64,000 bases of DNA, from contig CAZBDL010000001.1 of assembly GCA_964490525.1 (NCBI GenBank), forward strand, positions 25,474 through 89,473, read 5' to 3'. The notes beneath the pieces are model-generated. The model was not told where the DNA came from, searched no databases, and saw nothing but the letters and a program-made list of their open reading frames with translations. This DNA comes from an uncultured Victivallales bacterium (lineage in GTDB: Bacteria; Verrucomicrobiota; Lentisphaeria; Victivallales; CAZBDL01). Shown piece by piece: positions 12,049 through 64,000 of this stretch. The number at the start of each line of letters is the position of its first letter. Position 1 is the stretch's first letter. The position numbers and the translations under genes are program-made.

Positions 12049-12062
12049 CTGCGGGGTGAACC

Positions 12063-16023: not shown

Positions 16024-16046
16024 GGCCTCCTCCTCACCGCTGAAAA

Positions 16047-16070: not shown

Positions 16071-16080
16071 CTCTGAATCA

Positions 16081-16109
16081 CGATATAATACACGTTATGT
16101 CGTTGTCAA
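16081..16109 (-). promoter_or_regulatory. rep1 promoter (TTGACA-N17-ATATCG)
   Basis: On the minus strand, TTGACA lies at 16109-16104 and ATATCG at 16086-16081. Confidence 0.5.
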
Positions 16110-16167
16110 GTGGTCAAATTCAAATAATATCGAGACTCAGGCGGCCTTTTGTCGTGTTTATCCTGTG

Positions 16168-16313
16168 AAGAACTGTGGAAAGTTCGCGATTTGACCGGAT
16201 TAGTGCCGTTGAGATGCCGGGGCAACTGTGGAAAGTTCGCGGTTCTGCTGTGGAAATGTCGTGAAATCGCTGTGGAAAATTCACGGTTCTGCTGTGGAAA
16301 TGTCGCGATTATG
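16168..16313. repeat. Iteron array 1: five direct repeats with core CTGTGGAAA(N)TTCGCG/TCACGG
   Basis: CTGTGG cores start at 16173, 16226, 16248, 16270 and 16292; the last four are spaced exactly 22 bp apart. An AT-rich ATATAAAGAATAAAG block follows. Confidence 0.75.
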
Positions 16314-16516
16314 CCTAATAAGTGCTTATCCATCAATGATTTGCAAAGGCCTAAAGATATAAAGAATAAAGATGTATCTGACGATAGTGTTCGCTTCGCT
16401 CACAGTTGCGCGCGCGCGCAAGGGCGGGGGGACACCCCCCGCAGAGATGGATGGCCCCCCGGAATGCGGGGAGGAAAGGCAGCTCCCTCATCGGGAGCCG
16501 CCTGACGGCAATCCGT

Positions 16517-16540
16517 AGACCGCCAGAAGTCTAGCGGTCT
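16517..16540. terminator. Second copy of the AGACCGC-N10-GCGGTCT hairpin, spanning the rep2 stop
   Basis: Part of the 63-nt block 16513-16575, which matches 14503-14565 with 2 mismatches. Confidence 0.4.
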
Positions 16541-18057: not shown

Positions 18058-18070
18058 GGTTCACCCCGCG

Positions 18071-18089
18071 ATTGTTCCAAAATGTCTGT
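18071..18089. promoter_or_regulatory. Partial inverted copy of the rep2 iteron in the rep2 leader
   Basis: ATTGTTCCAAAATGTCTGT compared with the reverse complement of the iteron, ATTGCACCAAAAAGTCTGT. Confidence 0.4.
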
Positions 18090-18111
18090 CAATTCCTGAG
18101 AAATTGTTGTA

Positions 18112-18140
18112 TATATACACAAAAACATCAATCATGTCAA
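18112..18140 (-). promoter_or_regulatory. rep2 promoter (TTGACA-N17-TATATA)
   Basis: On the minus strand, TTGACA lies at 18140-18135 and TATATA at 18117-18112. Confidence 0.55.
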
Positions 18141-18229
18141 GGTTTCACATGCAAAAATGTTCATCTGCATCAAATTAGGTCGTTATTTTTAGTGTAAAGG
18201 ATATTTTTTTACAAATATTATCCGGAACA

Positions 18230-18392
18230 ACAGACTTTTTGGTGCAATTCATGTGCGCTTGCGGATATTTCGCCGCCCCGAGGGCATTATTTTCGATGCT
18301 CATCACAGACATTCCGGTGCAATTCTACAGACTTTTTGGTGCAATTTTACAGACTTTTTGGTGCAATTTTACAGACTTTTTGGTGCAATTCG
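18230..18392. repeat. Iteron array 2: direct repeats ACAGACTTTTTGGTGCAATT(TT)
   Basis: Copies start at 18230, 18305 (variant), 18327, 18349 and 18371; the last four have a 22-bp period. AT-rich TATATAAAGAATAAAAG follows. Confidence 0.8.
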
Positions 18393-18747
18393 TGCTTATA
18401 AGTCCTTGCATGATAATTACTTATGCTTTCCTAAATATATAAAGAATAAAAGGCATCTAAAGATGGGTTCGCTTCGCTCACGTCGCGCATGCGCGCGAGG
18501 CTGGCAGGCCATGGGAAATACGGGGGAGGGGAGAAATTCCCGGAGGCAGCCTTCGACCGGACCGGGATTGGCTGGCTGGAAGGGGAGGGCATCGCCCTTT
18601 GTCCTGGACCCCTTCCCAGATGGCCGGAAACGCACCGTCCAGGGCCATTTGCGGGGAAATCCGCCCAGGAGGCCGGACAAGGGGGGCAGATGCGGCGGAG
18701 CGTGGCGCATGGGGCATGGTTCTCCGTGACGAAAATATTTATACCAC

Positions 18748-18776
18748 TTGACACAACAATAAGCAAGACGATATTT
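18748..18776 (+). promoter_or_regulatory. cas operon promoter (TTGACA-N17-ATATTT)
   Basis: TTGACA at 18748-18753 and ATATTT at 18771-18776. SD GGAGGAGG lies before the cas5 ATG. Confidence 0.6.
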
Positions 18777-18804
18777 ACGCAACTCAAAACGGAGGAGGCG
18801 AGCG

Positions 18805-19407
18805 ATGGATCATGTCCTTGAGGCATGGGGCCCGTATGGCTGCTTCACCCGGCCCGACTTCGGGACGGAGCGGGTCAGCTACCCGGTGATCACCCCCTCG
18901 GCGGCCCGGGCGCTCTTCGAGGCGGTGTACTGGAAGCCGCAGATGGCCTGGCAGGTGACGCGGATCGAGGTCCTGCGGATGGGGCGAACGATGCCCCTGC
19001 GCACGAACGAGGTGAAGGCTCGGGCCGGCGCCAACCCGATCTTCGTGTCGGAGCACCGGATCCAGCGGCACAGCCTGATCCTGGCGGACATCGCCTACCG
19101 GCTGCATGCGGAGATCGTGTTCCTGGGCGGCGAGGCCCCCGGGCCGAAGCACACGGAGATGTTCCGCCGGCGCCTGGAGCGGGGCCAGGTCCACCACCGG
19201 CCCTATTTCGGGTGCCGCGAGTTCGCCTGCGAAGTGGGCCCGCCAACGGACAGGGAGCCGGAGCGAATCAGCCTTGACCTCGGCACGATGCTCCTCGACC
19301 GCGACTGGGAAGGGCTGGGCGACCCGCCCCGGTTCTTCCATGCCAGGATCGCGGACGGGACCATCATGGTTCCGGCGCGGCCGCTGCGCCAGGCAGGTGC
19401 CGCATGA
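18805..19407 (+). CDS. cas5c: Cas5c (Cas5d), type I-C pre-crRNA endoribonuclease and Cascade subunit
   Basis: LEAWGPYGCFTRPDFGTERVSYPVITPSAARALFEAVYWKP matches the hallmark Cas5d N-terminus. First gene of the cas5-cas8c-cas7 order. Confidence 0.9.
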   Translation: MDHVLEAWGPYGCFTRPDFGTERVSYPVITPSAARALFEAVYWKPQMAWQVTRIEVLRMGRTMPLRTNEVKARAGANPIFVSEHRIQRHSLILADIAYRLHAEIVFLGGEAPGPKHTEMFRRRLERGQVHHRPYFGCREFACEVGPPTDREPERISLDLGTMLLDRDWEGLGDPPRFFHARIADGTIMVPARPLRQAGAA

Positions 19408-20975
19408 TCGCCGCGCTGGCCAGGCTGCAGGAACGGCTGGTGGACGGGGGAGAGGCCCTGCCCGCCGGGTGGGAGAGGAGGAAGCTCACGGCCCTGGTGT
19501 GCGTGAACGAGGCCGGGCTTGGCATCGGCCTGCGCTTCCGCGAGGAGGATTTTCCCGTCCCCGTCCGTCCCCAGCGGGCGAACTCCATCGCTCCCGGGCT
19601 GGCCTGGGACACTCCGGAGTACGCCCTGGGCATCCCCCGGAAGTCGAGCCCGGAACGCACCGCCGAGATGCACCGGCTCTTCCGGCTGCGCCTCGACGCG
19701 CTGGACTGCGACGACCCCGGCCTGGAGGCCGTGCGCCGATTCCTCGCCAGGGAAGGGGACCGGCTGCTGTCCGGCATCGACCAGGTGGCCGCCCAGCCGG
19801 GCGCGACCCTCGGGTTCATCCTGCTCGACGACGAGGAGCCGGTCCACCTGCGGCCGGCCGTGCGGGCGGCGATCCAGGACGAACTGGACAGGGCGGCCGA
19901 TCCCGGCGAGGACGCCGAGGAGGGGCAATGCTCCATAACGGGGCGCGACGGGGCCATCGCCCGGCTCCACCCGAAGATCCGCTTCCCCGGCGGGCGGGCC
20001 AGCGGCACCAGCCTCGTCAGCTTCAACGCCCCCTCCCTTGAGCACTTCGGCAGGGAGCAGGGAGGAAACGCGGCCGTCGGGGAGGGCACGGCGGCCGATG
20101 CCGCCGCCGCGCTCAATGCCCTGCTGGCGCCGGACTCCCTGCGGAGGCTCATGGTCGAGGGACTGGCCGTCCTGGCCTGGACCGAGGGGCCGTCGCCGGC
20201 CGAGGGGCGCGTCATCCCGATGCTGGAGGGATCCGGCGACATCGCGGAGGAGGACCTGGAATCTTCGGATGCCGTCCACCTGGCGGTGCTGGCGCCTCGT
20301 GACGGGCGCCTCTCGGTCCAGCTCTGGGAGACCCTCCCCATGGGGACGCTGGCCGCCAGGATCGCCGAATGGCGGCGGCGGACGCGGCTGCCGGCCGACG
20401 CCGAGCCCCCGCCCCATTGGGCCGTGCTCCGTTCAATCCAGCGGGGAGGGGGCCAGGTGCCCCACGGGATCGCCACCGCGTACCTTCGGGCCATGGTCCT
20501 CGGGCTGCCGCTGCCGCCGTCCCTGGTGCGCCCGGCGCAGGAGGCCGTGCTCGCCGCGCTCGCGGCGCGGCGCCCCGTGCCGCCGGCCATCGCCATCGTC
20601 AACCATTCGGCCATGGAGGGCCGCGAACCCATGAACGAGGACATCCTCCTGCCGGCCGGGCAACAGTCGGAGGCCTACCGCCTCGGCCGGTTCTTCGCCG
20701 TCGTCTCCTGCGCCTGCCGCAAGGCCGGGCTCGACCGGAACGCCCCCCAGGCCGCCATGCGCCCCAGGGCCATGGCGGAAAGGGCCATGGCCAAGTACAA
20801 CGGCTACAGCATGGGCAAGGGGCTCCGCGTGCATTACGACAAGATCATCGACGACATCCTCGCGGGCGTCTCCGATCCGGTCCCGGAAACCCTCGGCCCC
20901 GTCCAGCGGGGAGAGTTCATCCTCGGATTCCACCACCAACGCAAGGCCATCTTCACCAAGGGAAAGGGCAACTGA
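19404..20975 (+). CDS. cas8c: Cas8c (Csd1), type I-C large subunit
   Basis: 523-aa ORF between cas5c and cas7c, with an ATGA overlap with cas5c. Position and size fit Csd1. The sequence was not independently recognised motif by motif. Confidence 0.75.
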   Translation: MIAALARLQERLVDGGEALPAGWERRKLTALVCVNEAGLGIGLRFREEDFPVPVRPQRANSIAPGLAWDTPEYALGIPRKSSPERTAEMHRLFRLRLDALDCDDPGLEAVRRFLAREGDRLLSGIDQVAAQPGATLGFILLDDEEPVHLRPAVRAAIQDELDRAADPGEDAEEGQCSITGRDGAIARLHPKIRFPGGRASGTSLVSFNAPSLEHFGREQGGNAAVGEGTAADAAAALNALLAPDSLRRLMVEGLAVLAWTEGPSPAEGRVIPMLEGSGDIAEEDLESSDAVHLAVLAPRDGRLSVQLWETLPMGTLAARIAEWRRRTRLPADAEPPPHWAVLRSIQRGGGQVPHGIATAYLRAMVLGLPLPPSLVRPAQEAVLAALAARRPVPPAIAIVNHSAMEGREPMNEDILLPAGQQSEAYRLGRFFAVVSCACRKAGLDRNAPQAAMRPRAMAERAMAKYNGYSMGKGLRVHYDKIIDDILAGVSDPVPETLGPVQRGEFILGFHHQRKAIFTKGKGN

Positions 20976-20976
20976 C

Positions 20977-22071
20977 ATGCAGCAGCAGGAAACCATCGGC
21001 CGGCACGACCTCGTGCTCCTCTTCGACGTCAGGAACGGCAACCCCAACGGCGACCCGGACGCGGGCGGCATCCCGCGAGTGAACCCGCTCAACGGGCACG
21101 GCATCGTCACCGACGTGTGCATCAAGCGCAAGATCCGCAACTTCGTCCAGCTCGACAAGGGGTTCGAGCCGCCGTACGACATCTACGTCCGGGAGAAGAG
21201 CGTCCTCGGCGCCGCCCACTTCAAGATCTGCGAGGAGCTGGGGATCGACGCCGGCGCGTCGGCGGTCCGCGAGATCGCCCCGGAGATCGCCGAGGCCATC
21301 GGCATGACCGAGTTGCCCGAGGGCGTCGAGGTCATTGAGGACGGCGACGCGCGGCGGCTGGTCGTGGCGTCCACCGCCGACGTGGCCGCCGTGAAGCGGT
21401 ACGTCAAGGAATCCGGGCTCGACAAGGCGGCCGCCAGGGCCGTGGCAGACACCCTCAAGGAGGCGCGGCCCCGCAAGCTCTCACGCGACGAGTCCGAGCG
21501 CGGATGCGAGGCCATGTGCCGGCGCTACTTCGACATCCGCGCCTTCGGCGCCGTCCTCTCCCTCAAGTCCGCCCCCAACTACGGGCAGGTGCGCGGCCCC
21601 GTCCAGGTCACCTTCGCCGAGAGCCTGGACCCCATCACCCCCGTCGAGACGACCGTCACGCGCTGCGCCGTGACCACCGAGGCCGAGTCCGCCGACCAGG
21701 GAGGGGAGAACCGCACCATGGGCCGGCGCACCATCGTCCCCTACGCCCTCTACCGTGCCCATGTCTTCGTCTCCGGCCCGTTCGCCGCGCGTACCGGGTT
21801 CGGCCAGGCGGACCTCGACCTGGTGCTCCGGGCCCTCGCCGGCATGTTCGAGCACGACCATGCCGCCGCACGCGGCGAGATGAACGTACGGGCCCTGTGC
21901 GGCTTCCGGCACGCCTCCCCCATGGGCAACGCCCCGTCGGGCACGCTCCTGGAGCGAATCAAGGCCACCAGGGCGCAGGACCGCCCCTGCCCCGCGTCGT
22001 TTGCCGACTACCGGATCGAGACGGACACCGGCAACCTCCCCGAGGGCGTCGAGTTCATCCGCGTCGTCTAG
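20977..22071 (+). CDS. cas7c: Cas7c (Csd2), type I-C backbone subunit
   Basis: LLFDVRNGNPNGDPDAGGIPRVNPLNGHGIVTDVCIKRKIRNFV is the characteristic Csd2 N-terminal signature. Confidence 0.9.
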   Translation: MQQQETIGRHDLVLLFDVRNGNPNGDPDAGGIPRVNPLNGHGIVTDVCIKRKIRNFVQLDKGFEPPYDIYVREKSVLGAAHFKICEELGIDAGASAVREIAPEIAEAIGMTELPEGVEVIEDGDARRLVVASTADVAAVKRYVKESGLDKAAARAVADTLKEARPRKLSRDESERGCEAMCRRYFDIRAFGAVLSLKSAPNYGQVRGPVQVTFAESLDPITPVETTVTRCAVTTEAESADQGGENRTMGRRTIVPYALYRAHVFVSGPFAARTGFGQADLDLVLRALAGMFEHDHAAARGEMNVRALCGFRHASPMGNAPSGTLLERIKATRAQDRPCPASFADYRIETDTGNLPEGVEFIRVV

Positions 22072-22253
22072 CCGCGCGAACCCCAAGCTGACACCACGCC
22101 ACGCACAACGGTTCGCGGAACCCGCAACCCGCTCCACCATCAACACATGCAGCTTCCCGGGGCGACCCGGGAGCCATGCCGGCGGGGCGGCCGGGGCGGG
22201 TTCGCGCGAACGGTTCCTTGACAACTTGGCGCACAATGACTTGCGCATTGACC
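22072..22253 (+). promoter_or_regulatory. CRISPR leader with GGTTC/GAACC palindromes and a -35-like TTGACA
   Basis: GGTTCGCGGAACC at 22110-22122. The 12-nt palindrome GTTCGCGCGAAC at 22200-22211. GGTTCC at 22212-22217 abuts TTGACA at 22218-22223. No convincing -10 was found. Confidence 0.45.
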
Positions 22254-23859
22254 CCTTCGCCTCGCACGCGAGGCGCGGATTGAAACAACACATAAGCGGC
22301 GGTGATGGCGTCCTCGAAACCTTCGCCTCGCACGCGAGGCGCGGATTGAAACGGCCTGGACAAAAAAATCCTCATCGGGCATCTCCTTCGCCTCGCACGC
22401 GAGGCGCGGATTGAAACCGTTGCGGCGGACGCGGGGGACGCGCTGCGAGCCTTCGCCTCGCACGCGAGGCGCGGATTGAAACGCGGATTACGCGGCGTGT
22501 ATATTTGGGCGAAAGGCCTTCGCCTCGCACGCGAGGCGCGGATTGAAACCGGGTGATCTCGGTGCGGCCAATGGGAAACAGACCTTCGCCTCGCACGCGA
22601 GGCGCGGATTGAAACCTCGTGCCTTGACCCGAGGCTTGTATCAATTGAGTCCTTCGCCTCGCACGCGAGGCGCGGATTGAAACGAGTCGGGCACGTCCTC
22701 GAGGTAGCCGTTCACCGCCTTCGCCTCGCACGCGAGGCGCGGATTGAAACCGGGCGGTTGATATCCATACTGCGAACTACGCCACCTTCGCCTCGCACGC
22801 GAGGCGCGGATTGAAACCGGCTCCGCATGATCAGGGCATACAGCCCGCTCCCTTCGCCTCGCACGCGAGGCGCGGATTGAAACCTGCCGTTGCTGGCGAT
22901 CCTCGACGGGCATTCCTTCGCCTCGCACGCGAGGCGCGGATTGAAACCCGTCCAGCCCGTGGCGGACGACGTGGCCGAACTCCTTCGCCTCGCACGCGAG
23001 GCGCGGATTGAAACATGAGGGTCTTAGAGCTGATGCTGCTGGGGTACCCTTCGCCTCGCACGCGAGGCGCGGATTGAAACTTGCGCGCGCGCGGCCTCAA
23101 AAACGAGCAACGACCTTCGCCTCGCACGCGAGGCGCGGATTGAAACTCGGCGAGGCCGAGGATCGCCCCCTGGGCGGCGCCTTCGCCTCGCACGCGAGGC
23201 GCGGATTGAAACCCCGGCATGCCAGGCAGCTCCGGCTGGTCGAGCCTTCGCCTCGCACGCGAGGCGCGGATTGAAACCATGTCCTACGGACATAGCGTGG
23301 CAGGGGCGAGCCTTCGCCTCGCACGCGAGGCGCGGATTGAAACTGTGTGCACGGGAAATGTATGCAGCAACGCTTCCCTTCGCCTCGCACGCGAGGCGCG
23401 GATTGAAACACCGTCGGGCAGATGGCGGACTACCTGGGGATCGCCTTCGCCTCGCACGCGAGGCGCGGATTGAAACTCTCAATCACCATCGCCTGGGGGG
23501 GAGGACATTCCTTCGCCTCGCACGCGAGGCGCGGATTGAAACCCAGCAGGGGTACCTGCCGAGACATGCCGGGCACCTTCGCCTCGCACGCGGGGCGCGG
23601 ATTGAAACAATTTTTCCGTGGATGACGCCCAGGCGAAAGCCCCTTCGCCTCGCACGCGAGGCGCGGATTGAAACCCTAATTGTCTGCCAGCTCCCAGTCG
23701 AGGATCCTTCGCCTCGTACGCGAGGCGCGGATTGAAACGACGATTGACCGTGGATTCCTGTGGATGGCTTCTTCGCCGCATAATGAGGCGTGGATTGAAA
23801 TCATTGCCAAGCTGAGTGATATGTTCATATTCGCCCGATACCCGGGCGCGGATTGAAAC
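22254..23859 (+). CRISPR. Type I-C CRISPR array: 25 repeats (23 conserved plus 2 degenerate at the distal end) and 24 spacers
   Basis: The repeat is (C)CTTCGCCTCGCACGCGAGGCGCGGATTGAAAC, 32-33 nt, with a 7-bp stem CGCCTCG/CGAGGCG and the I-C-typical ATTGAAAC 3' end. The period is 64-68 bp. Point variants occur at 23577 and 23707. The degenerate repeats are at 23771-23801 and 23829-23859. Confidence 0.97.
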
Positions 23860-24184
23860 ATTGTAGCGTCCAATGGCAGGAAAAATCCCAATCCCCGCCC
23901 TGGCGGGGAGGGGAACCATTTCTGGCTGGAAGGGGAAATATCGGGAATCCTGTCCCCGGGTGGCCGGGGACGCGCTTTCCGGGCCCCCGGCAGGGGAATC
24001 CGGCCCAGAGGAAGGGGCGACATCGCCGCGAAGGTGCGTCAAAATGGCCCACGACTGCCTTGGCGTGGCAGTTAAAAATTCCACCTGGCAATCTCCGGGC
24101 TGATTCAACCCCAGCAGGAAGCTGGACGGCCGTCCATGGCACCGCCGCAGGCGGCTAGAATGGACTGGCCGGATTGTCCCGTTT

Positions 24185-29801: not shown

Positions 29802-29835
29802 TGTAGGCACGGGAAATGTATGCAGCAACGCTTGA
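29802..29835 (+). other. Protospacer-like self-match to CRISPR spacer 17 (23344-23377)
   Basis: 30 of 34 positions are identical, with an uninterrupted 27-nt run (29807-29833). Mismatches fall at spacer positions 4, 5, 33 and 34. The 5' flank at 29799-29801 is ATC. The match is in the same orientation as the crRNA sense strand. Confidence 0.9.
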
Positions 29836-29860
29836 CATACACGATTCATATGCCATATTT
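29832..29860 (+). promoter_or_regulatory. Promoter of the RHH-relaxase operon (TTGACA-N17-ATATTT)
   Basis: TTGACA at 29832-29837 and ATATTT at 29855-29860. Same architecture and same -10 hexamer as the cas promoter. Confidence 0.6.
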
Positions 29861-41677: not shown

Positions 41678-41706
41678 TGGACAGGCATAGTGGGAAAATG
41701 TATAAT
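41678..41706 (+). promoter_or_regulatory. Promoter (TGGACA-N17-TATAAT)
   Basis: TGGACA at 41678-41683 and consensus TATAAT at 41701-41706. Confidence 0.55.
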
Positions 41707-41742
41707 TATCTAACAAAATACGCAGAAATGGAGGTAAGGCAC

Positions 41743-44268
41743 ATGACCCGCTCCAGCATCCTCCCGGCCGTCCTCCTGGCCCTCCTTCCCGCCGCCGCCC
41801 AGGCCCTGACCATCTCCACCTCCCCGAACATCCTCTTCAACGAGGTGGGAACCTCGTTCTCCCTGGCCGAGGGAAAGGCCTACGCCTGGCGCGAAGGATC
41901 CCGGTATGTATGGGGAGAGTACCGCAACAATGCCTTCAGCTACAAGCAGAGCTGGCCCAACTGGACCGGCAGCGAGGACAAGAACAACGACTACATCGGC
42001 ATCAACCCCACGGGCAACGGAACCATCGACCCGTTCAACTACAAGCCGATCCGCGACGGCATGGAGAACGATGATAGCTTCGCACTCGGCATCTCCGGCT
42101 TCACCGACCACCGGCCGCTGGGCGCGGACACCGAGGTCGGCGCCGGACTGGCCGACCTGTATGTGTTCCACCTCGGCTCCGACATCAGCGGCGAATATGA
42201 GGTTCATGTCGACGGGCCCGGCGTCGAGTCCAGGACCTACACCGACAACCCGGCCGGCGCCGAGGTCTCCAACCTCTTCAGGGGATATCTCCCCTCCTGC
42301 CCCCCGTCCTACGCCATCGACGACATCATGACCGACGGGAACAACGTCCCCGAAAGCATCAACGCCGCCATCGTCGACGGCCGCTACCTCGCCTTCTCCC
42401 TCCTGCCGTCATGGCAGGACTCCGACCAGGCGTTCGCCGCCTTCAGCATCACCGCCACCAACGGCTACGGATCCTCCTCTGCCATCCTCACCGTCCGCCT
42501 CTACCCCTATGCGTTCAACGCCTCCATCGAGGTGGACGGAGAGCCCGACCCGGCCATCGGCGGATGGCTCCAGCTCAACGTGACCAGCGGCAGCATGACC
42601 GATATCCTGGACGGCGACGGCGAGCGGAGGTGCATTGCCGGAGCCCCGGGACAGCAGGTGTTCTTCGAGGCCGCCTGCGACGGCTACGCCTACGAGTTCA
42701 AGGGATGGAAGGTCCGGGGATCCGAATACCCCGGCCTCGGCGGCATCACCGTCTTCAACAAGACCTGGGAGGAGCTGCTGGAGATGGGCGGAATGCCCCC
42801 CGACGGCAGGGAGGGGCCGGACATCGCCGCCGTCTTCACCGCCGCCAACAAGTCCACCCTTACCGTGCGCGTCAATGGCGAGGGCAACGCCACGCCGCGC
42901 CGCGCCACGCTCGCCGTGGGCGGGTCCACCGAGGTGATCGTCACCGAATGGTGCGCCCCGTTCCAGGGATTCGAGGACATCCAGGGAAGGACCACCCAGG
43001 AACTGCTCAACACCCAGCCCATCGGGCTCGGCGGCCTGGCCAACGAGACCAACCGCTACACCTACCGGGTCACGATGCACGAGAACAACTCCATCGTCCG
43101 GGCGACCTTCGCGTCGCCGGACGATCCCTGGCCGGACGACGACGACGACGATGATGGCGGCGGGGGCGGCGGCGGCGGCACCGTCTGGCCCGACGACGAC
43201 GACGACGATGACGACTACGAGCCGCCCCCGCCCCCGCCCGGGCAGGTCTACCTGATCATCGGCACCCGGGGCGACGGCCGGGCCACCCCGAACCAGGTCA
43301 ACGTCGCCCCGCGCACACCCGTTCAGGTGACCTTCCAGGAGCTTGGCGCCTCCTTCAAGGGGCCGGTCATCCAGACCGGCGAGGCCACCATGGAGGCCGT
43401 CTCCCAAGGCGGCAGCGACTACGCCGCCCAGTATGTCTACAACATCGCCCCGATCACGAACACAACCATCGTGGCCCCGTTCCTGCGCGAGGAATACCCC
43501 CCCACGGTCACCGCCTACGACGTGCGCCTGAGCAAGCGGGGGTCGGGGTCCGCCGCCCCGCAGGCGTTCCGCCTGCCCCCGGGCAGGAGCACCCTGATCA
43601 CCCTCTCCGAGATCAACTCCACCCTGATCGGCGTGGAGGTCGTCTCCGGCCGTGCCGACCTCGCCCTGCTCGACACCACGGGAGCCAGCCTCTCGCGCGT
43701 CCACCGCTACGGCGTGGGCGGCGTGGGCATGCCCACCGAGATCCTGGCCACCTTCCAGGACGCCGGCGGGCCTCCTCCCGGCACCAAGTACAAGCTGACC
43801 ATCAAGAAGGCAGGAAGGGGATCCACCACCCCCTCGTCCGTCCAGGTCGAGTCCTGGCAGCGGGTCACCGTGGTCTGCCAGGAGTCCGGCGGGGTGTTCA
43901 AGAAGCTGGAACTGGTCGATGGCGTCGCCCAGCTCGGCGCCCCCACCACCTCCGGCACCACCATGGGCGCCAGGACCTATTCCTACCCCGTCTCCAGCGT
44001 CCAAAAGGCCACCACCCTGCTCGCCACCTTCGAGGGCGGCGGGGATGACGACGACGACGATGGCGGCGACGATGACGACGATGACGACGGCGGAGGCGGA
44101 GGGGGCGGCGGAAAGGGGGATGACGACGACGACGAGGTCAACCCGCTCGTGCCGGCGGCCGGCGCCGCCGGACTCCTCCTCCTCAAGCAGAAGCAGAACC
44201 TCTACCGCCCCCATTGGTCCACCGAGCGCCCCGACACCCCCTGGGACGCCAGGAAGCGGGGGGAATAG
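41743..44268 (+). CDS. Large secreted repeat protein (841 aa), InlB-B-repeat/adhesin-like, with poly-Asp/poly-Gly linkers
   Basis: Signal peptide MTRSSILPAVLLALLPAAAQA. Repeated modules of about 80 aa (e.g. TLTVRVNGEGNATPR, YKLTIKKAGRGSTTPS) and a GYAYEFKGWKV motif. D7-8/G7-8 tracts. Confidence 0.65.
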   Translation: MTRSSILPAVLLALLPAAAQALTISTSPNILFNEVGTSFSLAEGKAYAWREGSRYVWGEYRNNAFSYKQSWPNWTGSEDKNNDYIGINPTGNGTIDPFNYKPIRDGMENDDSFALGISGFTDHRPLGADTEVGAGLADLYVFHLGSDISGEYEVHVDGPGVESRTYTDNPAGAEVSNLFRGYLPSCPPSYAIDDIMTDGNNVPESINAAIVDGRYLAFSLLPSWQDSDQAFAAFSITATNGYGSSSAILTVRLYPYAFNASIEVDGEPDPAIGGWLQLNVTSGSMTDILDGDGERRCIAGAPGQQVFFEAACDGYAYEFKGWKVRGSEYPGLGGITVFNKTWEELLEMGGMPPDGREGPDIAAVFTAANKSTLTVRVNGEGNATPRRATLAVGGSTEVIVTEWCAPFQGFEDIQGRTTQELLNTQPIGLGGLANETNRYTYRVTMHENNSIVRATFASPDDPWPDDDDDDDGGGGGGGGTVWPDDDDDDDDYEPPPPPPGQVYLIIGTRGDGRATPNQVNVAPRTPVQVTFQELGASFKGPVIQTGEATMEAVSQGGSDYAAQYVYNIAPITNTTIVAPFLREEYPPTVTAYDVRLSKRGSGSAAPQAFRLPPGRSTLITLSEINSTLIGVEVVSGRADLALLDTTGASLSRVHRYGVGGVGMPTEILATFQDAGGPPPGTKYKLTIKKAGRGSTTPSSVQVESWQRVTVVCQESGGVFKKLELVDGVAQLGAPTTSGTTMGARTYSYPVSSVQKATTLLATFEGGGDDDDDDGGDDDDDDDGGGGGGGGKGDDDDDEVNPLVPAAGAAGLLLLKQKQNLYRPHWSTERPDTPWDARKRGE

Positions 44269-44271
44269 CCC

Positions 44272-46467
44272 ATGAAGAAAGCCTGCGCCATCCTCGCATC
44301 GCTCGTCGCCGCAACGGCCCTTGCCGTGGATCCCCTCGACTACCCCGACGAGGACATCGTGTTCGAGGTCGTCAAGGTCAGGCACAGCTTCCAATGGTGG
44401 GGATTCAACCGATGGAACTGGTCGACCGGCATGAACACGTTCGCGGGAACCGCCCTCCCCGACAACGCCGTCGCCAAGGCCGCCCTCTGGGTGAACCTCA
44501 TCGAGGCGGACCCGGATCCCGCCAGGAACATCACCTACACGCACGCCGACGGGACGGAGACCGTCGCCGACCTCGCGACAAACCGCATGTTCCTGGAGAA
44601 GTACTGCATCGGCCCGATCTCATGGCCGCCCCTGGACACGGGCATCGACTGGCGCACAATGGCCAGGATCACCTGGCGCTACGAGAACTCAAGGCTCCAC
44701 TACCAGATGTCGTCGACGCAGGGGGGAATGGGGGAAAACAGCTCCGGCTCCTTCCTCATCGCCGGCCTTGGATACTACGGCACCGATGTCGTCGTCCGGG
44801 TGGACAAGTACAACGTCAAGCGGCCCGTCGTCCTCTCCACCGTCAGGGACTGCTACAACGGGCGCAACTACGGATTCCAGGTCGCCGACTTCTTCAGCGG
44901 GCCATACCGCGAATACGCCACGACCATGATCCAGGGCCACCCCCAGGTGACCCACAGCAACGGGTTCTTCTCCATCCCCCTCGCCTCCAGCCCCGTGCTG
45001 ACCACCGGGCAGGCCATCTACCGCGTCGTCTGCAGCAACGGATACGGCTCGGTCACCACCAACATCGCCTTCAACCTCTACCCCACCGGCATCATCGTCG
45101 AGAGCGGCACCGGCGGCAACACCGACCCGTCGCCCGGCAACTACGGGGCGGAGCCCGGAACGCCGTTCCCGATCACCGCCTACCCGCTGACCGGATACCG
45201 GTTCGCCCATTGGCAGGTGGAGAAGCAGGACATCTCCGGCCTCTGGCAGCTCCTGCCGGCCACCCACGCCGATAACCCGCATACTTTCACCTATGAGTCG
45301 GAGATGCAGCGCGTCACCCCCATCTTCGAGGTCGAACCCGAGATCACCCATTGGCCGCTGACCCTCGACTTCAACCAGTCCATGGGCGCCCTGACCGTCG
45401 GGGCCAACACCTACGACAGCCCCGGGACCATCCAGGTCCCGGTCGGGGCCAACACCGTGGCCCTCCGGGCCAACCCCGCGTTCGCCCACCGGTTCCTCCT
45501 CTGGACCGCCACCGTCGGCGCGGCCGAGCCGGTCACCGCCACCGCCAACCCCTGGCAGCTCACCGTGACCTCGGCATCGACCCTGCGGGCCGACTTCGAG
45601 CCGGTCGACGAGTTCATGCTCTCCTGGGACATCGGCAGCTCCGGGCATGTGCGCATCGACGGGGTGGACAGGACCGAGGATGGCGAGGCCGGATACGCCC
45701 CCGGGGCCATGGTCACCGTCCAGGCCGTGCCCGCCCCGGGATACGCCTTCCTGGCCTGGACGGGCGACATTCCCGGGGACGACAAGGAGAACGCCGCCGT
45801 CCTGCTGGAGATGGACCGCGACCGGGCCATCTCTCCCCGGTTCTACCAGGACGGGGAGCCCCCGCCCTCCTCGCACACCCTGACCTACATGCTCGAGCTC
45901 GATGCCAAGGGGTACATCACCGTGGACGGGTCGAAGAAGACGAAGTCCGGGTCGACGGCCTTCGCCGCCGGCGCATCGGCGGCCGTCAGGGCCACCGCCC
46001 TTGCCGGATACAGGTTCTCGTCCTGGTCCGGCGACATCAACGAGATCTACAGGGACCTGCCCAACCTCACCCTCTCGATGAACGCCGACCGGGCCATCCG
46101 CCCGAACTTCGTGGCCGACGACGACGGGGATGACGACGGGGACGGAAACGGCGGCGGCGGCGGCATCATCATCATCCCGCCCGACGGCGGCCGGACCTCC
46201 ACCGGCAGCGCCACCACGACCGAGGCCTCCAGTTCGTCCTCCGCCCCCTTCTTCTCCGGCGGCAGCCTCCACAACGGCCCGCCAAGCTCAAGCTCAGGCT
46301 CCGGGTCCGGCGACGCCGACAACCTCAACGACCCGCGCTACCTGACCAAGTACCGCGAGTTCCGGGACGGCGGCGGGGATGTCTACTACTCCAACCAGGC
46401 AACAGAGCAGTCGCGCCCCGTCTACGAGGGGCTTGGCAACCTCATCAAATCCATCGGAGGGAAATGA
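44272..46467 (+). CDS. Large secreted InlB-B-repeat (Listeria-Bacteroides repeat) protein (731 aa)
   Basis: Signal peptide MKKACAILASLVAATALA. Repeated GYxFxxWxG signatures (LTGYRFAHWQV, APGYAFLAWTGDI, LAGYRFSSWSGDI). Confidence 0.65.
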   Translation: MKKACAILASLVAATALAVDPLDYPDEDIVFEVVKVRHSFQWWGFNRWNWSTGMNTFAGTALPDNAVAKAALWVNLIEADPDPARNITYTHADGTETVADLATNRMFLEKYCIGPISWPPLDTGIDWRTMARITWRYENSRLHYQMSSTQGGMGENSSGSFLIAGLGYYGTDVVVRVDKYNVKRPVVLSTVRDCYNGRNYGFQVADFFSGPYREYATTMIQGHPQVTHSNGFFSIPLASSPVLTTGQAIYRVVCSNGYGSVTTNIAFNLYPTGIIVESGTGGNTDPSPGNYGAEPGTPFPITAYPLTGYRFAHWQVEKQDISGLWQLLPATHADNPHTFTYESEMQRVTPIFEVEPEITHWPLTLDFNQSMGALTVGANTYDSPGTIQVPVGANTVALRANPAFAHRFLLWTATVGAAEPVTATANPWQLTVTSASTLRADFEPVDEFMLSWDIGSSGHVRIDGVDRTEDGEAGYAPGAMVTVQAVPAPGYAFLAWTGDIPGDDKENAAVLLEMDRDRAISPRFYQDGEPPPSSHTLTYMLELDAKGYITVDGSKKTKSGSTAFAAGASAAVRATALAGYRFSSWSGDINEIYRDLPNLTLSMNADRAIRPNFVADDDGDDDGDGNGGGGGIIIIPPDGGRTSTGSATTTEASSSSSAPFFSGGSLHNGPPSSSSGSGSGDADNLNDPRYLTKYREFRDGGGDVYYSNQATEQSRPVYEGLGNLIKSIGGK

Positions 46468-59748: not shown

Positions 59749-61329
59749 ATGCGCTCCGAACAAGAGTTGATCGCGATGTCCCTTGCCTTGATAGGGGGGC
59801 AGGTTGGGTTGTCAGTCGCTGAGCGAATACTGGCAAGTTCAGTTGTTGGTATAACTCCCAATGCGCGTGACGTTAATTCCTTTCGCAGTCGGATTATTTC
59901 AGGAAATGATCCTCTTGGCGAAGCGTTTACAATGATTCGGTCGGCTCAAAAGCGTCGTGTTACTGGCGCTGTCCTTACGCCGCATCAAATCGTTAATTCA
60001 ATAGTAAAATGGCTATTAGGCCAAGGGACACCGGCTCGTATCATAGATCCAGGTGCCGGGTCGGGGCGATTCATCTTGGCGGCAGGTAAGGCGTTTCCTA
60101 ATGCTCAACTCGTGGCGGTCGAAAAGGATCCACTGGTGGCGTTGATGGTACGCGCCAACCTACATGTGTGTGGATGGATGAAGCGGTCAACTATTGTCGT
60201 AAATGACTATCGCCAGGTAAAATTACCGCGTTGCAACGGGATGACTGCTTTCATCGGCAATCCACCCTATGTGCGCCACCATGACATCGGCGAGAAATGG
60301 AAAGCCTGGTACTCGGCTAAATTTACCCAATATGGCATCAAGGCCAGCGAGTTGGCGGGTTTACATCTGCACTTTTTCCTACAAACTCGCATGTTAGCCC
60401 AGCATGGAGATATTGGCGCATTCATTACCTCAGCCGAATGGATGGATGTCAATTATGGGTATGCCCTACGCATGCTTTTGATTAAAGAACTCGGGGGAAT
60501 TGCGTTGCATGTATTGGAACCAACCGTCGCCGCCTTTCCTGGTACAGCCACTACGGCGGCAATTACATGTTTCCATGTTGGCGAAGCAGTTCGCCCGATT
60601 CGTGTACGTTCGGTCGCAAAGTTGAATAGACTGAACGGATTAACCAATGGCGTTGATGTTACACGGGAGCGCTTGCAGGCCGAACCACGTTGGTCAATCA
60701 TTGTGCGCCCCGCTGCGGTTGCCAGCGGGGGGGAGATTGAGTTGGGAGAACTTTTTCGGGTGCATCGAGGTCAGGTTACCGGTGCAAACGATATCTGGAT
60801 TGTTGGCGAGCACGCCAAGAGGCTTCCTGAACGCATAAAAATACCCTCTGTCACTAAGGCAAAGGATTTGATTCAGGCAGGTGCAGCCCTTAACTCAGAT
60901 CAGGTCTTGCGCCGCGTCATCGACTTGCCTCCTGATTTGGATGAATTCACTGGGGAAGAGCAGAAGAACATTGAAGCATTCCTTGTTTGGGCTAGAGCAC
61001 AAGGGGTTGACAAGGGCTATGTTGCCCAACATCGCAAAGCATGGTGGTCGGTTGGCCTCAAGTCCCCAGCGCCTATCCTTTGCACTTATATGGCACGTCG
61101 GCCGCCACAATTCACCTTAAATGCCTGTAGTGCGAGGCACATCAATGTGGCGCATGGACTCTACCCCCATGGTAATCTTCCAGATGTCCTTATGTCCCGC
61201 CTTGTAGCATGGCTGAACGAGAACATCAAAATAGGAAGCGGCAGAACTTATGCAGGCGGTCTGACGAAGTTCGAGCCAAGGGAGATTGAGCGCCTACGCA
61301 TACCAAGCCCTGCAACCCTTACCGCATGA
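59749..61329 (+). CDS. N6-adenine DNA methyltransferase (gamma-class, Eco57I/TaqI-like)
   Basis: SAM-binding motif I IIDPGAGSGRFILAAG and catalytic motif IV FIGNPPYVRHH. Lower-GC region. Confidence 0.85.
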   Translation: MRSEQELIAMSLALIGGQVGLSVAERILASSVVGITPNARDVNSFRSRIISGNDPLGEAFTMIRSAQKRRVTGAVLTPHQIVNSIVKWLLGQGTPARIIDPGAGSGRFILAAGKAFPNAQLVAVEKDPLVALMVRANLHVCGWMKRSTIVVNDYRQVKLPRCNGMTAFIGNPPYVRHHDIGEKWKAWYSAKFTQYGIKASELAGLHLHFFLQTRMLAQHGDIGAFITSAEWMDVNYGYALRMLLIKELGGIALHVLEPTVAAFPGTATTAAITCFHVGEAVRPIRVRSVAKLNRLNGLTNGVDVTRERLQAEPRWSIIVRPAAVASGGEIELGELFRVHRGQVTGANDIWIVGEHAKRLPERIKIPSVTKAKDLIQAGAALNSDQVLRRVIDLPPDLDEFTGEEQKNIEAFLVWARAQGVDKGYVAQHRKAWWSVGLKSPAPILCTYMARRPPQFTLNACSARHINVAHGLYPHGNLPDVLMSRLVAWLNENIKIGSGRTYAGGLTKFEPREIERLRIPSPATLTA

Positions 61330-62252
61330 CCACTTCACCTACACAATGGACCGACGAAGAGTTCTTTGCGAATGTCGCTGTTGCCGTCGCTCGGTTCAGG
61401 GACGAACGCTTAGCGGTGTCGGATTCATGGTCGGAGAATTATAGGTCGGCGCGGGGGAAATTTGACCTATTGTTCCAGAAATTGAGCGATTTAAACCCAG
61501 AGGTCATTACCAACCACAACCTGGCAGAAGTCTACGGCAATGGACTGGGCGAAGCCTTACGGTATTTGGCAGGCCCCCCCATCTCGGATGACGACCTACA
61601 AGTGTTAGCCGATGTGGATTCGATGGCACCTAGTGTCCTAATGGAAAACCCTGCTTCGCTTCGGATGGTGTTTGATGTCATTGCGCGTGTAATTGACCCC
61701 CACCGTTTCCCATGGATTGTAAACGGATCTATGCCGACTACGCAGCAGAAGGAAGCAGCCCTCCTGGCTTCATCTGTGTTGTTGGCAGCACAGCGCGTTG
61801 CAACGGAACGGCGAATGGATGTCAAGGCAAGACAGGAACAAGAGGTAAAAGACTACCTAAACACTATTGGTTATCAGGAAGTCCAGCCTGTTGAAATCAA
61901 CACAATTATGAACGGCCCCCGGGGCGGGGAGTTTTGTGCAGAATGCAAGCTGGGAGACAGGAAGGCCGATGTGGTCTTGCGACTAAACGACAGCCGACTC
62001 ATGGCAATCGAATGCAAGGTGTCAAACAGTGCCACCAACAGCGTAAAACGTCTCAATAATGATGCCGCCGCAAAAGCTAGACATTGGTTGCAAATATTCG
62101 GGACGATGCAGGTTGTACCGTCCGCTATGCTTGCTGGCGTTTTCAAGGTGATAAACCTAAAACAAGCACAGAGCCAGGGGCTTGCAATATTCTGGTCTCA
62201 TGATCTTACAAAACTTGGGGAGTTCATTGAGTCAACGAATGGACACGGATAA
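61326..62252 (+). CDS. Putative type II restriction endonuclease (PD-(D/E)XK), partner of the methyltransferase
   Basis: ATGA overlap with the MTase gene. ADVVLRLNDSRLMAIECKVS fits D...ExK. Same low-GC composition. Confidence 0.6.
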   Translation: MTTSPTQWTDEEFFANVAVAVARFRDERLAVSDSWSENYRSARGKFDLLFQKLSDLNPEVITNHNLAEVYGNGLGEALRYLAGPPISDDDLQVLADVDSMAPSVLMENPASLRMVFDVIARVIDPHRFPWIVNGSMPTTQQKEAALLASSVLLAAQRVATERRMDVKARQEQEVKDYLNTIGYQEVQPVEINTIMNGPRGGEFCAECKLGDRKADVVLRLNDSRLMAIECKVSNSATNSVKRLNNDAAAKARHWLQIFGTMQVVPSAMLAGVFKVINLKQAQSQGLAIFWSHDLTKLGEFIESTNGHG

Positions 62253-62374
62253 ATCACCTTATTCCCACTTAGGAACGTTCTCCAGTTGCAATATCCGGCT
62301 GGAATGGGAGATATCGGGTGGGTGAGTTAAGCATAGCAATATGTTAGCTAACAAGGAGAAGGGAGAAGGACAAT

Positions 62375-62926
62375 ATGAAATTGGGCCGCGCGTTTATAGT
62401 CTGGATGGCGCTATCATGTACTGCCCTCGCGCAGACTCGTAGTGTGGATGGCACCGCCACGGGTATGTACTACAATGATGTCAGTAAGCAATGGTCTGAC
62501 AAGCCGGTTTCGATCTATGTTGACGATGTGGAAAAAGTTTACATTCGCGGCGGCGACTCTCTACCCAAGGCCGTGGGCTATTTCCCTGGCGCACGCCTGA
62601 AGGAAGTCATCGGTTTGCTTGAGAAGAGCCTTGACTGGTCCAAGAAAGCGAGAGAGAACAAACTAGAGACCACAAAGCCACTTGGCTCGTTTGTGACTGG
62701 TACTGGGCACCAGCGGCAGGGGATAGAGTTGGTTTTCTTCGCCGCTGACAAAGGGAACCAGACGGATGTGATTCTGAAAGTCCAAGACTTCGACAACATG
62801 TTCATGAATATCAGCCTCTACTTGAATCCCGAGCAAGTGTCAGAGTTCATAGCTCTGCTCAAGAAAGTTCCAGAAACCTACCGCGAACTGAAGGCACAGA
62901 AGGCAAAATCCGACATCCTGAATTAA
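62375..62926 (+). CDS. Secreted hypothetical protein (183 aa), low GC
   Basis: Signal peptide MKLGRAFIVWMALSCTALAQ. SD AAGGAGAAGGGAGAAGG upstream. Confidence 0.55.
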   Translation: MKLGRAFIVWMALSCTALAQTRSVDGTATGMYYNDVSKQWSDKPVSIYVDDVEKVYIRGGDSLPKAVGYFPGARLKEVIGLLEKSLDWSKKARENKLETTKPLGSFVTGTGHQRQGIELVFFAADKGNQTDVILKVQDFDNMFMNISLYLNPEQVSEFIALLKKVPETYRELKAQKAKSDILN

Positions 62927-62978
62927 GGAGGCCAATTAACGTCTTCTGCGGACGGATGACCACCACTGTAGCCGTGGC

Positions 62979-63063
62979 GTTCGCCTCCCCCCGAGGCGTG
63001 GATTGAAACATCGCCCAGGCCCGCTCGACCCGCGTTTCGCCCCCATGGGGCGCGGATTGAAAC
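62979..63063 (+). CRISPR. Orphan mini-array: two degenerate I-C-like repeats flanking one short spacer-like segment of about 25 nt
   Basis: Repeat A, GTTCGCCTCCCCCCGAGGCGTGGATTGAAAC, at 62979-63009. Repeat B, TTTCGCCCCCATGGGGCGCGGATTGAAAC, at 63035-63063. Both keep a 6-bp stem and the GGATTGAAAC end. Same orientation as the main array. Confidence 0.75.
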
Positions 63064-63088
63064 ACCAGATCCGAGATGAACGTGGGCA

Positions 63089-63108
63089 CCCCTCCCCTGC
63101 GGGAGGGG
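63089..63108. terminator. Perfect 8-bp GC hairpin between convergent genes (CCCCTCCC-CTGC-GGGAGGGG)
   Basis: Seen directly. No U-tract on either strand. 26 nt downstream of the mini-array. Confidence 0.4.
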
Positions 63109-63120
63109 CGCCCGCCGGGG

Positions 63121-63927
63121 CTATTCCCGGCCGACGGCCTCCAGGAACTCCTCCCCGTCTGGGGTGAGGTTCAGGGCGGCGTCGCGCACGTCCTTGCCGG
63201 CGTCCAGGCAGAAGCACTTGTGGCCTGGCCCGGTGAGGTAGCCGCGCTTGTGCAGCTCGTGGAACTCGTTCAGGCGCTCCAGGGGCACGTTGAGCCAGGA
63301 GCAGAGGCGGTCCACATCGCGCAACGCCCGGACCTCCCAGGTGTCGGGAACGTCCCTCTCCCGTGTCCCGTCCAGCTCGATCACCGTCGGCCGCCGGGTT
63401 GCCGTTCCCGGGAACAGCTCCCAGGCGCTGCACCAACGGTCGCCGCCGGCGCGTTCCCTGGCCGCCCGGGAGCGGATCCCTCGCGCCGTAGTGAGGAAGG
63501 GGCCCTCCCAGGTGCCGCGCTCGCCCTCGCCCGAGAGCAGGAACCAATGCCTCCGGGGCGTGCCGCCCTTGGCGCCGTTCGCCCGGCTGGCGGCCCGCTT
63601 CGCCGGTGTCCGGGCCTTTCCTCCGACCTGCCCGCCCTTGCGGCCGAGGATCGCGGCGGGCGACTCCTCCTCGCGGACGAAGACGACGTCGCTGCCGACG
63701 CCCTGGCAGTACACTTGGTCGCCAAGGCGAAGGACCGTATGTGCGGCATCGGCCGAGACCAACGTTCCACCCCAGGACTCCTCGTCATTCAGGTCAATCC
63801 CTGCGGCGGCCGCTCCCTCGTCGGTCCAGGATTCGCGGTTGACCTCGAAGTCGTCCTTGCGGATCGTCCACCAGTCGAACGTGGCCGCGAAGACCACCCG
63901 ATACGCCTTGATCTGCTGCCCCTTCAT
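63121..63927 (-). CDS. Hypothetical protein (268 aa)
   Basis: Complete track ORF, GC3-rich. ATGA overlap with the upstream partial gene. Confidence 0.55.
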   Translation of the reverse strand: MKGQQIKAYRVVFAATFDWWTIRKDDFEVNRESWTDEGAAAAGIDLNDEESWGGTLVSADAAHTVLRLGDQVYCQGVGSDVVFVREEESPAAILGRKGGQVGGKARTPAKRAASRANGAKGGTPRRHWFLLSGEGERGTWEGPFLTTARGIRSRAARERAGGDRWCSAWELFPGTATRRPTVIELDGTRERDVPDTWEVRALRDVDRLCSWLNVPLERLNEFHELHKRGYLTGPGHKCFCLDAGKDVRDAALNLTPDGEEFLEAVGRE

Positions 63928-64000
63928 CCCCTGCCCTCCTCGGTTGCGGTTATGTTGTTTTCAGTCGGCTCATTGATCCACTCCTCCCACTCCTTGCGGG
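63924..64000 (-). CDS. Partial CDS (C-terminal 25 codons; starts beyond the window end), tail TEEGRG
   Basis: Hand translation gives ...RKEWEEWINEPTENNITATEEGRG, then stop. The frame is open to the window edge. The stop overlaps the next ATG as ATGA. Confidence 0.45.
   Translation of the reverse strand, partial: RKEWEEWINEPTENNITATEEGRG

Follow-up and report, generated by a model that had tools for sequence, protein, structure and literature searches.

How did two CRISPR repeats come to stand by themselves, 39 kb from the main array of the plasmid that carries them, and could they still give rise to RNAs that a Cascade effector can use? The question is raised by positions 62979-63063 of a 64,000-nucleotide stretch of DNA from an uncultured Victivallales bacterium (GenBank assembly GCA_964490525.1, contig CAZBDL010000001.1; the whole stretch is referred to below as the window), where a first-pass annotation had pointed out an orphan two-repeat mini-array with type I-C-like repeats. 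The DNA of the window belongs to a conjugative plasmid of high GC content. Following up this observation computationally, we came to read the mini-array as a putative CRISPR RNA (crRNA)-like unit that derives from an array end, is still processable and would act in trans, a reading on which our judgment is evenly divided.

The sequence GGATTGAAAC, searched with up to one mismatch, occurs 28 times in the window as opposed to 2.2 times expected by chance. The main type I-C array (22254-23859) accounts for 25 of these occurrences, and one further match with a single mismatch is intragenic (48563). Outside the main array, exact copies are found only at 63000-63009 and 63054-63063, 54 nt apart, and these are the 3' ends of the two repeats of the mini-array, which is made up as follows.

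62980-63009, plus strand: pseudo-repeat A (psiR1), TTCGCCTCCCCCCGAGGCGTGGATTGAAAC
62982-62987 / 62993-62998, plus strand: psiR1 stem CGCCTC/GAGGCG, with loop CCCCC and the 11-nt tag TGGATTGAAAC
63010-63034, plus strand: pseudo-spacer 1 (psiS1), ATCGCCCAGGCCCGCTCGACCCGCG, 25 nt
63035-63063, plus strand: pseudo-repeat B (psiR2), TTTCGCCCCCATGGGGCGCGGATTGAAAC
63038-63043 / 63047-63052, plus strand: psiR2 stem CGCCCC/GGGGCG, with loop CAT and the 11-nt tag CGGATTGAAAC
63064-63088, plus strand: second spacer-like stretch (psiS2), 25 nt, in the position of the trailer after the main array's last repeat
63082-63115, strand unassigned: G+C-rich hairpin, core 63089-63096 / 63101-63108, -33.4 kcal/mol, z = -3.1

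The two same-orientation repeats with a 25-nt gap, and the stems and handle described for them in the first-pass annotation, were thus confirmed at 62980-63063, but the extent of 62979-63063 given there is too short, as the unit runs on through psiS2 and the hairpin to about 63115. The overall layout is therefore psiR1, psiS1, psiR2, psiS2 and hairpin. Both repeats combine a 6-bp stem hairpin with an exact GGATTGAAAC tag, the features by which a I-C repeat is recognized as a Cas5c substrate. Each forms the expected hairpin when folded singly; the global fold of the whole unit was ambiguous, and only the local hairpins are robust. In Rfam, psiR2 gave a sub-threshold match to CRISPR-DR9 (26.7 bits, E = 9e-4). 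Stem pairs were tabulated by script, since a MAFFT alignment of the repeat variants put the stems in the wrong place. Relative to the main-array consensus CGCCTCG/CGAGGCG, pair 5 is T-A in psiR1 and C-G in psiR2, with both sides changed, which bears out the compensatory exchange that had been proposed for psiR2. The hairpin at 63082-63115 reaches to within 5 nt of the stop codon of a 268-aa gene in convergent orientation and is likely to be the terminator of both the mini-array and that gene.

A canonical CRISPR array has a leader, at least three regular and near-identical repeats, and spacers of normal length (here 31-36 nt). The mini-array instead has two unlike, non-consensus repeats and a 25-nt spacer (29 nt in the sister plasmid described below). 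No homologue of the main-array leader was found upstream of it, the leader 11-mer ACGGTTCCTTG occurring in the window at 22210 only, and no further solitary repeats (hairpin plus tag, up to three mismatches) were found in the window or in the sister plasmid. A low-GC type II restriction-modification (R-M) island lies upstream of the mini-array, and high-GC backbone lies downstream. The upstream neighbors include the following.

59749-61329: R-M methylase
61326-62252: XamI-family endonuclease
62927-62979, plus strand: 3' flank of a 183-aa gene, a decayed terminator with a weak fold (-12.9 kcal/mol, z = +0.7)

Protein look-ups retrieved sibling plasmids in the form of three contigs from a single Joint Genome Institute (JGI) metagenome (3300044603), and the fragments L015 and L016 were identical to the window. 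In a 43-kb sister contig (L002) the whole mini-array is present at the same place. The methylase, XamI-type endonuclease and 183-aa genes of this contig have about 99% DNA identity to those of the window, as against 78-95% for the surrounding backbone, and the block of 99% identity common to both plasmids ends within psiS1. On the other side, an unrelated stretch of 2.2 kb with genes for a trypsin-like protease and DUF6998 separates the hairpin of L002 from its counterpart of the 268-aa gene, which encodes 270 aa and is 78% identical. Judging by these two plasmids, the mini-array has survived rearrangement on both of its sides. Within it, psiR1 shows one difference (62993 G>A) that breaks pair 6 in L002. 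The psiS1 of L002 has 29 nt, of which the first 21 are the same save position 12, with an indel at the 3' end. In psiR2 there are three changes, all of them in the loop, and psiS2 differs at positions 6, 7, 13, 18, and 24. The hairpin that follows psiS2 in L002 has another sequence but stands in the same place.

These differences are distributed unevenly between the two plasmids. None of the 26 positions in the stem, tag and flank of psiR2 have changed, as against 8 of the 28 in its loop and psiS2 (Fisher p = 0.004); at 15-20% divergence, 26 bases would all stay unchanged with a probability of 0.003-0.015. Of the six spacer substitutions, four are at every-sixth positions (6, 12, 18, 24), seven such positions being available in the spacers (hypergeometric p = 0.003); type I Cascades flip these every-sixth bases of a guide out of its duplex with the target. 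This pattern suggests that the mini-array repeats appear to be under purifying selection. Recognition by Cas5c involves the base of the stem, the 11-nt tag and the U/C-G-G that follows the cut, but not the loop or the 5' overhang (PMC8524198), and the parts of the mini-array kept between the window and L002 coincide with these determinants. The Cas5c encoded on the plasmid can be aligned with Cas5c endonucleases of solved structure, and its catalytic residues Tyr42, Lys115, and His116 are retained. Selection for Cas5c processing, as put forward in the first-pass annotation, is thus plausible from the contrast of 0/26 with 8/28 and from the retained determinants, as seen in a comparison of only two distinct versions.

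The same comparison bears on the main rival explanation, according to which the mini-array is an inert relic, that is, the remains of a second I-C array, or a piece of a host array captured through recombination, left over once cargo genes had taken the place of the remainder; it would be unused, tolerated and bound to decay. We regard this as possible, though not as the expected outcome. It does not readily account for tags and a psiR2 stem that stayed intact alongside changes in the loop, the spacer tail and psiS2, for the six-base periodicity of the spacer substitutions, for a unit that outlasted rearrangements on both flanks in two plasmids, or for a terminator hairpin that was kept in L002 though its sequence differs. 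On the other hand, a relic is what one would see in a unit that resembles a degenerate array end down to its shortened last spacer, that has no leader, predicted promoter or found target, and that in L002 has already lost one stem pair and varies in spacer length. Several points weigh against a functional unit. Two distinct versions were compared, and all of the statistics rest on a handful of substitutions. The conservation of psiR1 and of the first 21 nt of psiS1 may be due merely to the recently exchanged 99% block. The stem of psiR1 is weakened to 5 bp in L002, and spacer length is variable (25 versus 29 nt). The periodicity could be luck, as psiS2 by itself gives p = 0.016, and psiS2 sits at the array-trailer position, where a six-base periodicity is not expected. 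No promoter was predicted for the mini-array. A target was found nowhere, with about 25 kb of the plasmid lying outside the window. Finally, the likenesses of spacer and hairpin to the main array, to which we now turn, are of moderate and of little weight, respectively.

The closest relative of the mini-array within the window is the end of the main array.

23771-23859, plus strand: terminal unit of the main array, consisting of repeat 24, a spacer of about 25-26 nt and repeat 25

The last main repeat (23829-23859, CGCCCG/CGGGCG) has C-G at pair 5 and G-C at pair 6, in repeat 24 the G-C of pair 7 has become A-T, and repeat 21 shows a T-G intermediate. Repeat 24 and psiR1 are alike in having T before GGATTGAAA, and repeat 25 and psiR2 are alike in their C-G pair 5 and in having C before GGATTGAAAC. 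The spacer is short in both the mini-array and the main terminal unit (about 25 nt), compared with 31-36 nt in the other main spacers. The first nine bases of the mini-array spacer and of main spacer 24 match in register at seven positions, a likeness that gives moderate support (p = 0.004 uncorrected, 0.1 when corrected for all spacers). Alignment of the trailing hairpin with the main trailer gave p of about 0.016, and this is weak evidence because part of the G-rich hairpin arm resembles the backbone too. The final spacers of the main array (23739-23859) shrink toward the trailer (32, 31, and about 25-26 nt), and its last two repeats are degenerate with their hairpins kept, repeat 24 ending in GAAAT.

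Taken as they stand in the sequence, these likenesses suggest that a type I-C array, at its trailer end, was the probable source of the mini-array. That the last main repeat displays a C-G change like that of psiR2, as had been remarked before, is correct; the C-G pair common to both may reflect shared ancestry and not two independent compensatory events. The fallback proposal that the R-M insertion split a remnant off the main array is not correct in that form. Within its cassette, the main array possesses a degenerate end and a trailer of its own, and so the mini-array resembles the end of that array but is not its missing piece.

In a functional unit, expression would come from read-through of the R-M/183-aa operon, extending up to the hairpin at 63082-63115. 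A comparison with an unrelated contig (L137), which carries an 82% identical 183-aa gene and keeps 53 nt of its 3' flank, is informative in this respect. In L137 this flank is a strong terminator hairpin (-30.6 kcal/mol, z = -4.0), while its equivalent in the window has decayed; read-through into the mini-array from the side of the 183-aa gene is thus plausible and the most likely route of expression, as the flank at 62927-62979 would no longer be a barrier. The homology of L137 to the window stops exactly at the first base of psiR1. Directly after the terminator hairpin, at 978-1497, L137 carries a group II intron (Rfam RF02001, 105 bits). The mini-array is consequently not part of the 183-aa gene unit, since L137 has the intron where psiR1 begins. 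Cas5c would then cut the transcript at the 3' base of each repeat hairpin, and one or two crRNA-like RNAs, each with a spacer of about 25 nt, would be loaded into a I-C Cascade. They would act in trans via any I-C Cascade in the cell, either the plasmid's own Cas3-less one or, in siblings without it, a host system. Their role could be that of a binding-only guide against a host or rival-element sequence, or that of an occupant that competes with other crRNAs.

A trans role is also what the search for targets leaves room for. The psiS1 and psiS2 stretches and their L002 versions were scanned, with every sixth base free, against the window and the sibling loci L002, L003, L138, and L139. No TTC-flanked seed of at least 9 nt was found for either stretch in any of these sequences. 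Seeds of at least 10 nt occur in the window and sibling loci at the frequency of shuffled spacers, and none of them has a TTC protospacer-adjacent motif (PAM). An ATC-flanked 10-nt match at 10236 and a match at 30002 were judged to be chance. The computed scan thus upheld the earlier impression by eye that the pseudo-spacer has no target in the window. The partial matches of 10-12 nt next to TTC that had been suggested as a check were likewise absent from the window and these sibling loci. Beyond the plasmids, when the whole unit was compared by blastn with PLSDB and phage genomes, all matches had E of at least 0.1. Exact scans of viral contigs yielded nothing for the tag combined with the seed of either psiS1 or psiS2, or for the main repeat. 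In metagenome contigs, the tag plus psiS1 seed had five matches, which were unrelated ordinary spacers.

These results speak to the possibility, raised in the first-pass annotation, of a CreA/CreR module acting in cis, in which the pseudo-spacer would guide Cascade to repress the promoter of a neighboring toxin or of the cas genes. We consider this very improbable. Its architecture is present, with a layout of psiR-psiS-psiR, degenerate repeats, a short spacer (23-27 nt are reported for I-F CreA/CreR) and, on the same plasmid, a binding-without-cutting Cascade of the kind on which CreA and CreR rely. Its location, cis target and linkage to cas are not. CreA and CreR lie inside cas loci, whereas the mini-array is 39 kb from the cas genes. 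In the region upstream of cas5c (18058-18830) the best seed was 7 nt, which is the chance level, and none was found in the array leader; no PAM-proximal match of at least 8 nt was present upstream of cas5c, in the leader or in any neighboring promoter, and upstream of the R-M genes there was none that was TTC-flanked or convincing in another way. The mini-array therefore shows neither the PAM-flanked promoter match of about 11 nt (in the window or sibling loci) and the place beside a cas operon that mark CreTA, nor the PAM-adjacent complementarity to the cas operon promoter that marks CreR. No small toxin candidate adjoins the mini-array, its neighbor being the 183-aa protein, which has a signal peptide and is secreted. 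Finally, the mini-array is conserved independently of the cassette, in a sibling that probably lacks it.

Isolated pairs of such repeats are not in themselves rare. A genome scan for GGATTGAAAC pairs 36-50 nt apart returned at least 120 loci (L017-L136), and about 24-31 of the 120 loci listed, or about a quarter, are stand-alone two-repeat pairs. Some of them have I-C-like hairpins and spacers of 15-28 nt (e.g., L025, L038, L061, L097, and L133). Among the 120 listed loci, no stand-alone pair was related to the mini-array or had a TTC-flanked target within its own 8 kb.

The relation of the mini-array to the plasmid's own Cascade is clarified by the cas locus, which consists of the following.

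18805-19407, plus strand: cas5c (Pfam, PADLOC)
19404-20975, plus strand: cas8c (Pfam, PADLOC)
20977-22071, plus strand: cas7c (Pfam, PADLOC)
22254-23859, plus strand: type I-C main array of 25 repeats, behind a leader
18689-23908, plus strand: the complete cassette of cas5c-cas8c-cas7c, leader, array and trailer, 5.2 kb, beside iterons

Neither the cas operon nor its immediate surroundings contained cas3, cas4, cas1 or cas2, and the scanned open reading frames (ORFs) of the window gave no match to Cas3 or adaptation-protein families. The description of this Cascade as Cas3-less accordingly holds for the cas cassette and the 64-kb window, with about 25 kb of the plasmid lying beyond. In a 34-kb sibling contig (L141), whose backbone has a single Rep3 gene, the equivalent of 23909 is joined directly to the equivalent of 18688 (L141 13600-13830). 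The cassette is therefore a discrete one that is absent from L141. L141 and L002 end at the same window-equivalent position, about 38.04-38.06 kb, and are probably two halves of one plasmid; the L002 plasmid, which keeps the mini-array, would thus probably be without a cas cassette of its own. In accordance with this, Cas8c had no relative above 28% identity among 5.8 billion proteins, and the 90% clusters of Cas5c, Cas8c, and Cas7c contain this plasmid only, while the backbone proteins cluster with those of the sibling contigs. The mini-array does not depend on the cas cassette of its plasmid. The suggestion that it confers addiction to the Cas3-less Cascade is unlikely because the mini-array is unlinked to the cas genes and is kept in L002, a sibling probably without the Cascade that is missing from L141. 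In the plasmid of the window, the Cascade into which the mini-array RNAs would be loaded may come from the cassette. Its Cas8c is extremely divergent, the next best protein being 28% identical, and its PAM may therefore differ from the usual TTC.

A more specific version of the trans-acting reading can be formulated, which we consider unlikely. In it, a two-guide unit co-transcribed with the R-M operon would direct a nuclease-free I-C Cascade to silence in trans a locus of the host or of a rival plasmid, which would be, for example, the host's own I-C cas promoter or a safeguard promoter. The Cascade would be that of the plasmid's cassette here and that of the host in the siblings. If true, the mini-array would be part of a plasmid anti-defense or competition module able to bring its own effector.

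Among known systems, the mini-array is by its architecture a member of the class of crRNA-like RNAs, as far as sequence can tell, and the most similar group within it are the Cracr RNAs, crRNA-like anti-CRISPR RNAs of phages and plasmids; some of those reported are plasmid-borne, and some are arrays of two spacers directed against I-C systems (Liu et al., bioRxiv 10.1101/2024.10.29.618823). Like these, the mini-array is found on a mobile element, here a conjugative plasmid with a type IV secretion system (T4SS), outside a CRISPR-cas locus. It has degenerate repeats, short spacers and a stacked two-spacer arrangement (psiR-psiS-psiR-psiS-hairpin) with a terminator-like end hairpin, and it is kept in a sibling plasmid that probably has no cas genes of its own. 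It differs in that no anti-CRISPR gene was recognized near it, in that its plasmid also has its own Cascade, and in its spacers of about 25-29 nt, compared with the 17-21 nt typical of viral I-F Cracrs. We do not claim membership, as the match that defines a Cracr, namely a stretch of at least nine PAM-proximal bases that a host CreA/CreR also has, or that could pair with the promoter of a host cas or creT gene, calls for host sequence.

Other classes are less similar. Racr and solitary repeat units of phages and plasmids (Camara-Wilpert et al. 2023, PMC10651486) are likewise repeat mimics on mobile elements that could sequester Cas5c and Cas7, and the sibling L138 carries a true solitary repeat. 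The mini-array, however, has two repeats and two spacer-like stretches, and the way its substitutions are distributed hints at base pairing, for which a pure decoy has no use. Medvedeva and colleagues reportedly described in 2019 that mini-arrays of viruses and plasmids are used in competition between elements. The use of such arrays in inter-element competition has been reviewed (PMC11656645). They resemble the mini-array in having one or two spacers and in using a host effector, with no need for cas genes on the element, but they have host-identical repeats, full-length spacers and clear matches in related elements; the mini-array has degenerate repeats and short spacers, and siblings, PLSDB and phages yielded no match to it. 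The trailer end of an ordinary array shares the repeat variants and the short spacer, as in the last unit of the main array, but the mini-array stands alone 39 kb away, has neither a leader nor additional repeats and is conserved across sibling plasmids. Atypical or delocalized crRNAs of CRISPR-associated transposons (CASTs) also combine a Cas3-less Cascade with an atypical-repeat guide away from the main array; no TnsA/B/C or TniQ was found among the Pfam-scanned genes of the window, and there was no attachment-site match.

The surroundings of the mini-array form a variable cargo hotspot (window 62308-64000; L002 9800-13830; L138 10984-13620), bounded in L002 and L138 by the XamI-type R-M genes and a tyrosine recombinase gene, which in the window plasmid would lie beyond the end of the window. 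Its cargo consists of the genes for the secreted 183-aa protein and the 268-aa protein in the window, to which L002 adds the trypsin-like protease and DUF6998. The 183-aa and 268-aa proteins had no match in Pfam, PADLOC, PHROG or PDB, and no repeats were found near the genes of the 183-aa homologues in L009-L014. In L138, a 50-kb contig representing the third sibling, the same R-M genes are followed by a single I-C repeat, TTTCGCCCTGCGTTCGGGGCGCGGATTGAAAC, located no more than about 115 bp from the end of the R-M module homology. About 60 nt upstream of this repeat (stretch and repeat together at 11040-11131) are homologous to the leader of the window's main array and include the exact 11-mer at the same distance to the repeat as in the main array. 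In place of the 183-aa and 268-aa genes, which are missing, a TIR-TIR-caspase operon (11199-13199) begins about 70 nt past the solitary repeat, and the leader-like promoter may drive these genes via a 5' end cleavable by Cas5c. Different pieces of I-C loci have thus come to lie at one hotspot, with a leader and one repeat in L138 and the mini-array in the window and L002. The leader-homologous solitary repeat of L138 also speaks for a derivation of the mini-array from the end of an array. A relic would fit such a region of cargo turnover, the more so as L138 retains only the opposite end of an array at the same hotspot.

The junctions in this region are also the basis of a further alternative, which we hold to be rather improbable, in which the repeat hairpins act at the level of DNA as recombination or insertion sites for hotspot cargo or host CRISPR arrays and have no function as RNA. 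The homology of L137 ending at the first base of psiR1, the proximity of the solitary repeat of L138 to the end of R-M homology, the 99% block of L002 ending in psiS1 and the adjacent recombinase genes in L002 and L138 would all agree with this, and recombination between mobile elements and CRISPR arrays has been discussed for plasmids (PMC9071438). Yet the junctions are only three in number and show no repeated junction sequences or att-like duplications, and the conserved single-stranded tag GGATTGAAAC points to recognition of RNA by protein.

As for the plasmid itself, its genes include a type IV secretion set (coupling protein, TraC/VirB4, TrbL, and TrbI) and ParA. PLSDB contained no close plasmid, and the best VirB4 match there, from an Opitutaceae plasmid, was 29% identical. 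Two Rep3-family initiator genes, each with its own set of iterons (16173-16308 and 18305-18390), lie within 14484-18390, and an 84%-identical duplication of 89 nt is found at the 3' ends of the Rep3 genes (14484-14572 and 16494-16582). The region 8376-14508 contains genes with polyvalent-protein domains (LPD1, LPD5, and ART-PolyVal), which are typical of the early-entering, anti-defense part of conjugative elements. Large transfer-region proteins (41698-46467) contain coding runs of Asp/Gly-rich acidic repeats at 43122-43224, 44031-44142, and 46113-46206. In the main array, spacer 17 (23344-23377) matches the plasmid itself at 29802-29835 in 30 of 34 positions, with mismatches at 4, 5, 33, and 34 and the upstream triplet ATC. 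The matched stretch, which is not conserved in the sibling L139, overlaps the -35 box (TTGACA, 29832-29837) of a promoter-like sequence that precedes a 77-aa ORF and a 348-aa ORF. Spacer 17 could serve either for self-regulation by the Cas3-less Cascade or for defense against sibling plasmids, in which case the resident copy would have acquired escape changes. The Cas3-less cassette and this self-matching spacer may deserve a finding of their own, and if the mini-array is inert, and therefore an ordinary array relic, they would be the more interesting object in the window.

The comparison of siblings shows that pieces of CRISPR loci, namely an array end, a leader followed by a single repeat, and an effector cassette in its entirety, have been scattered and retained, in the case of the first two within a plasmid cargo hotspot. 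If the mini-array is functional, it would provide a plasmid example, from an uncultured high-GC lineage, of the recently described crRNA-like RNAs with which mobile elements occupy or redirect type I Cascades, and an unusual one in that the same plasmid bears a Cas3-less I-C Cascade as a separate movable cassette.

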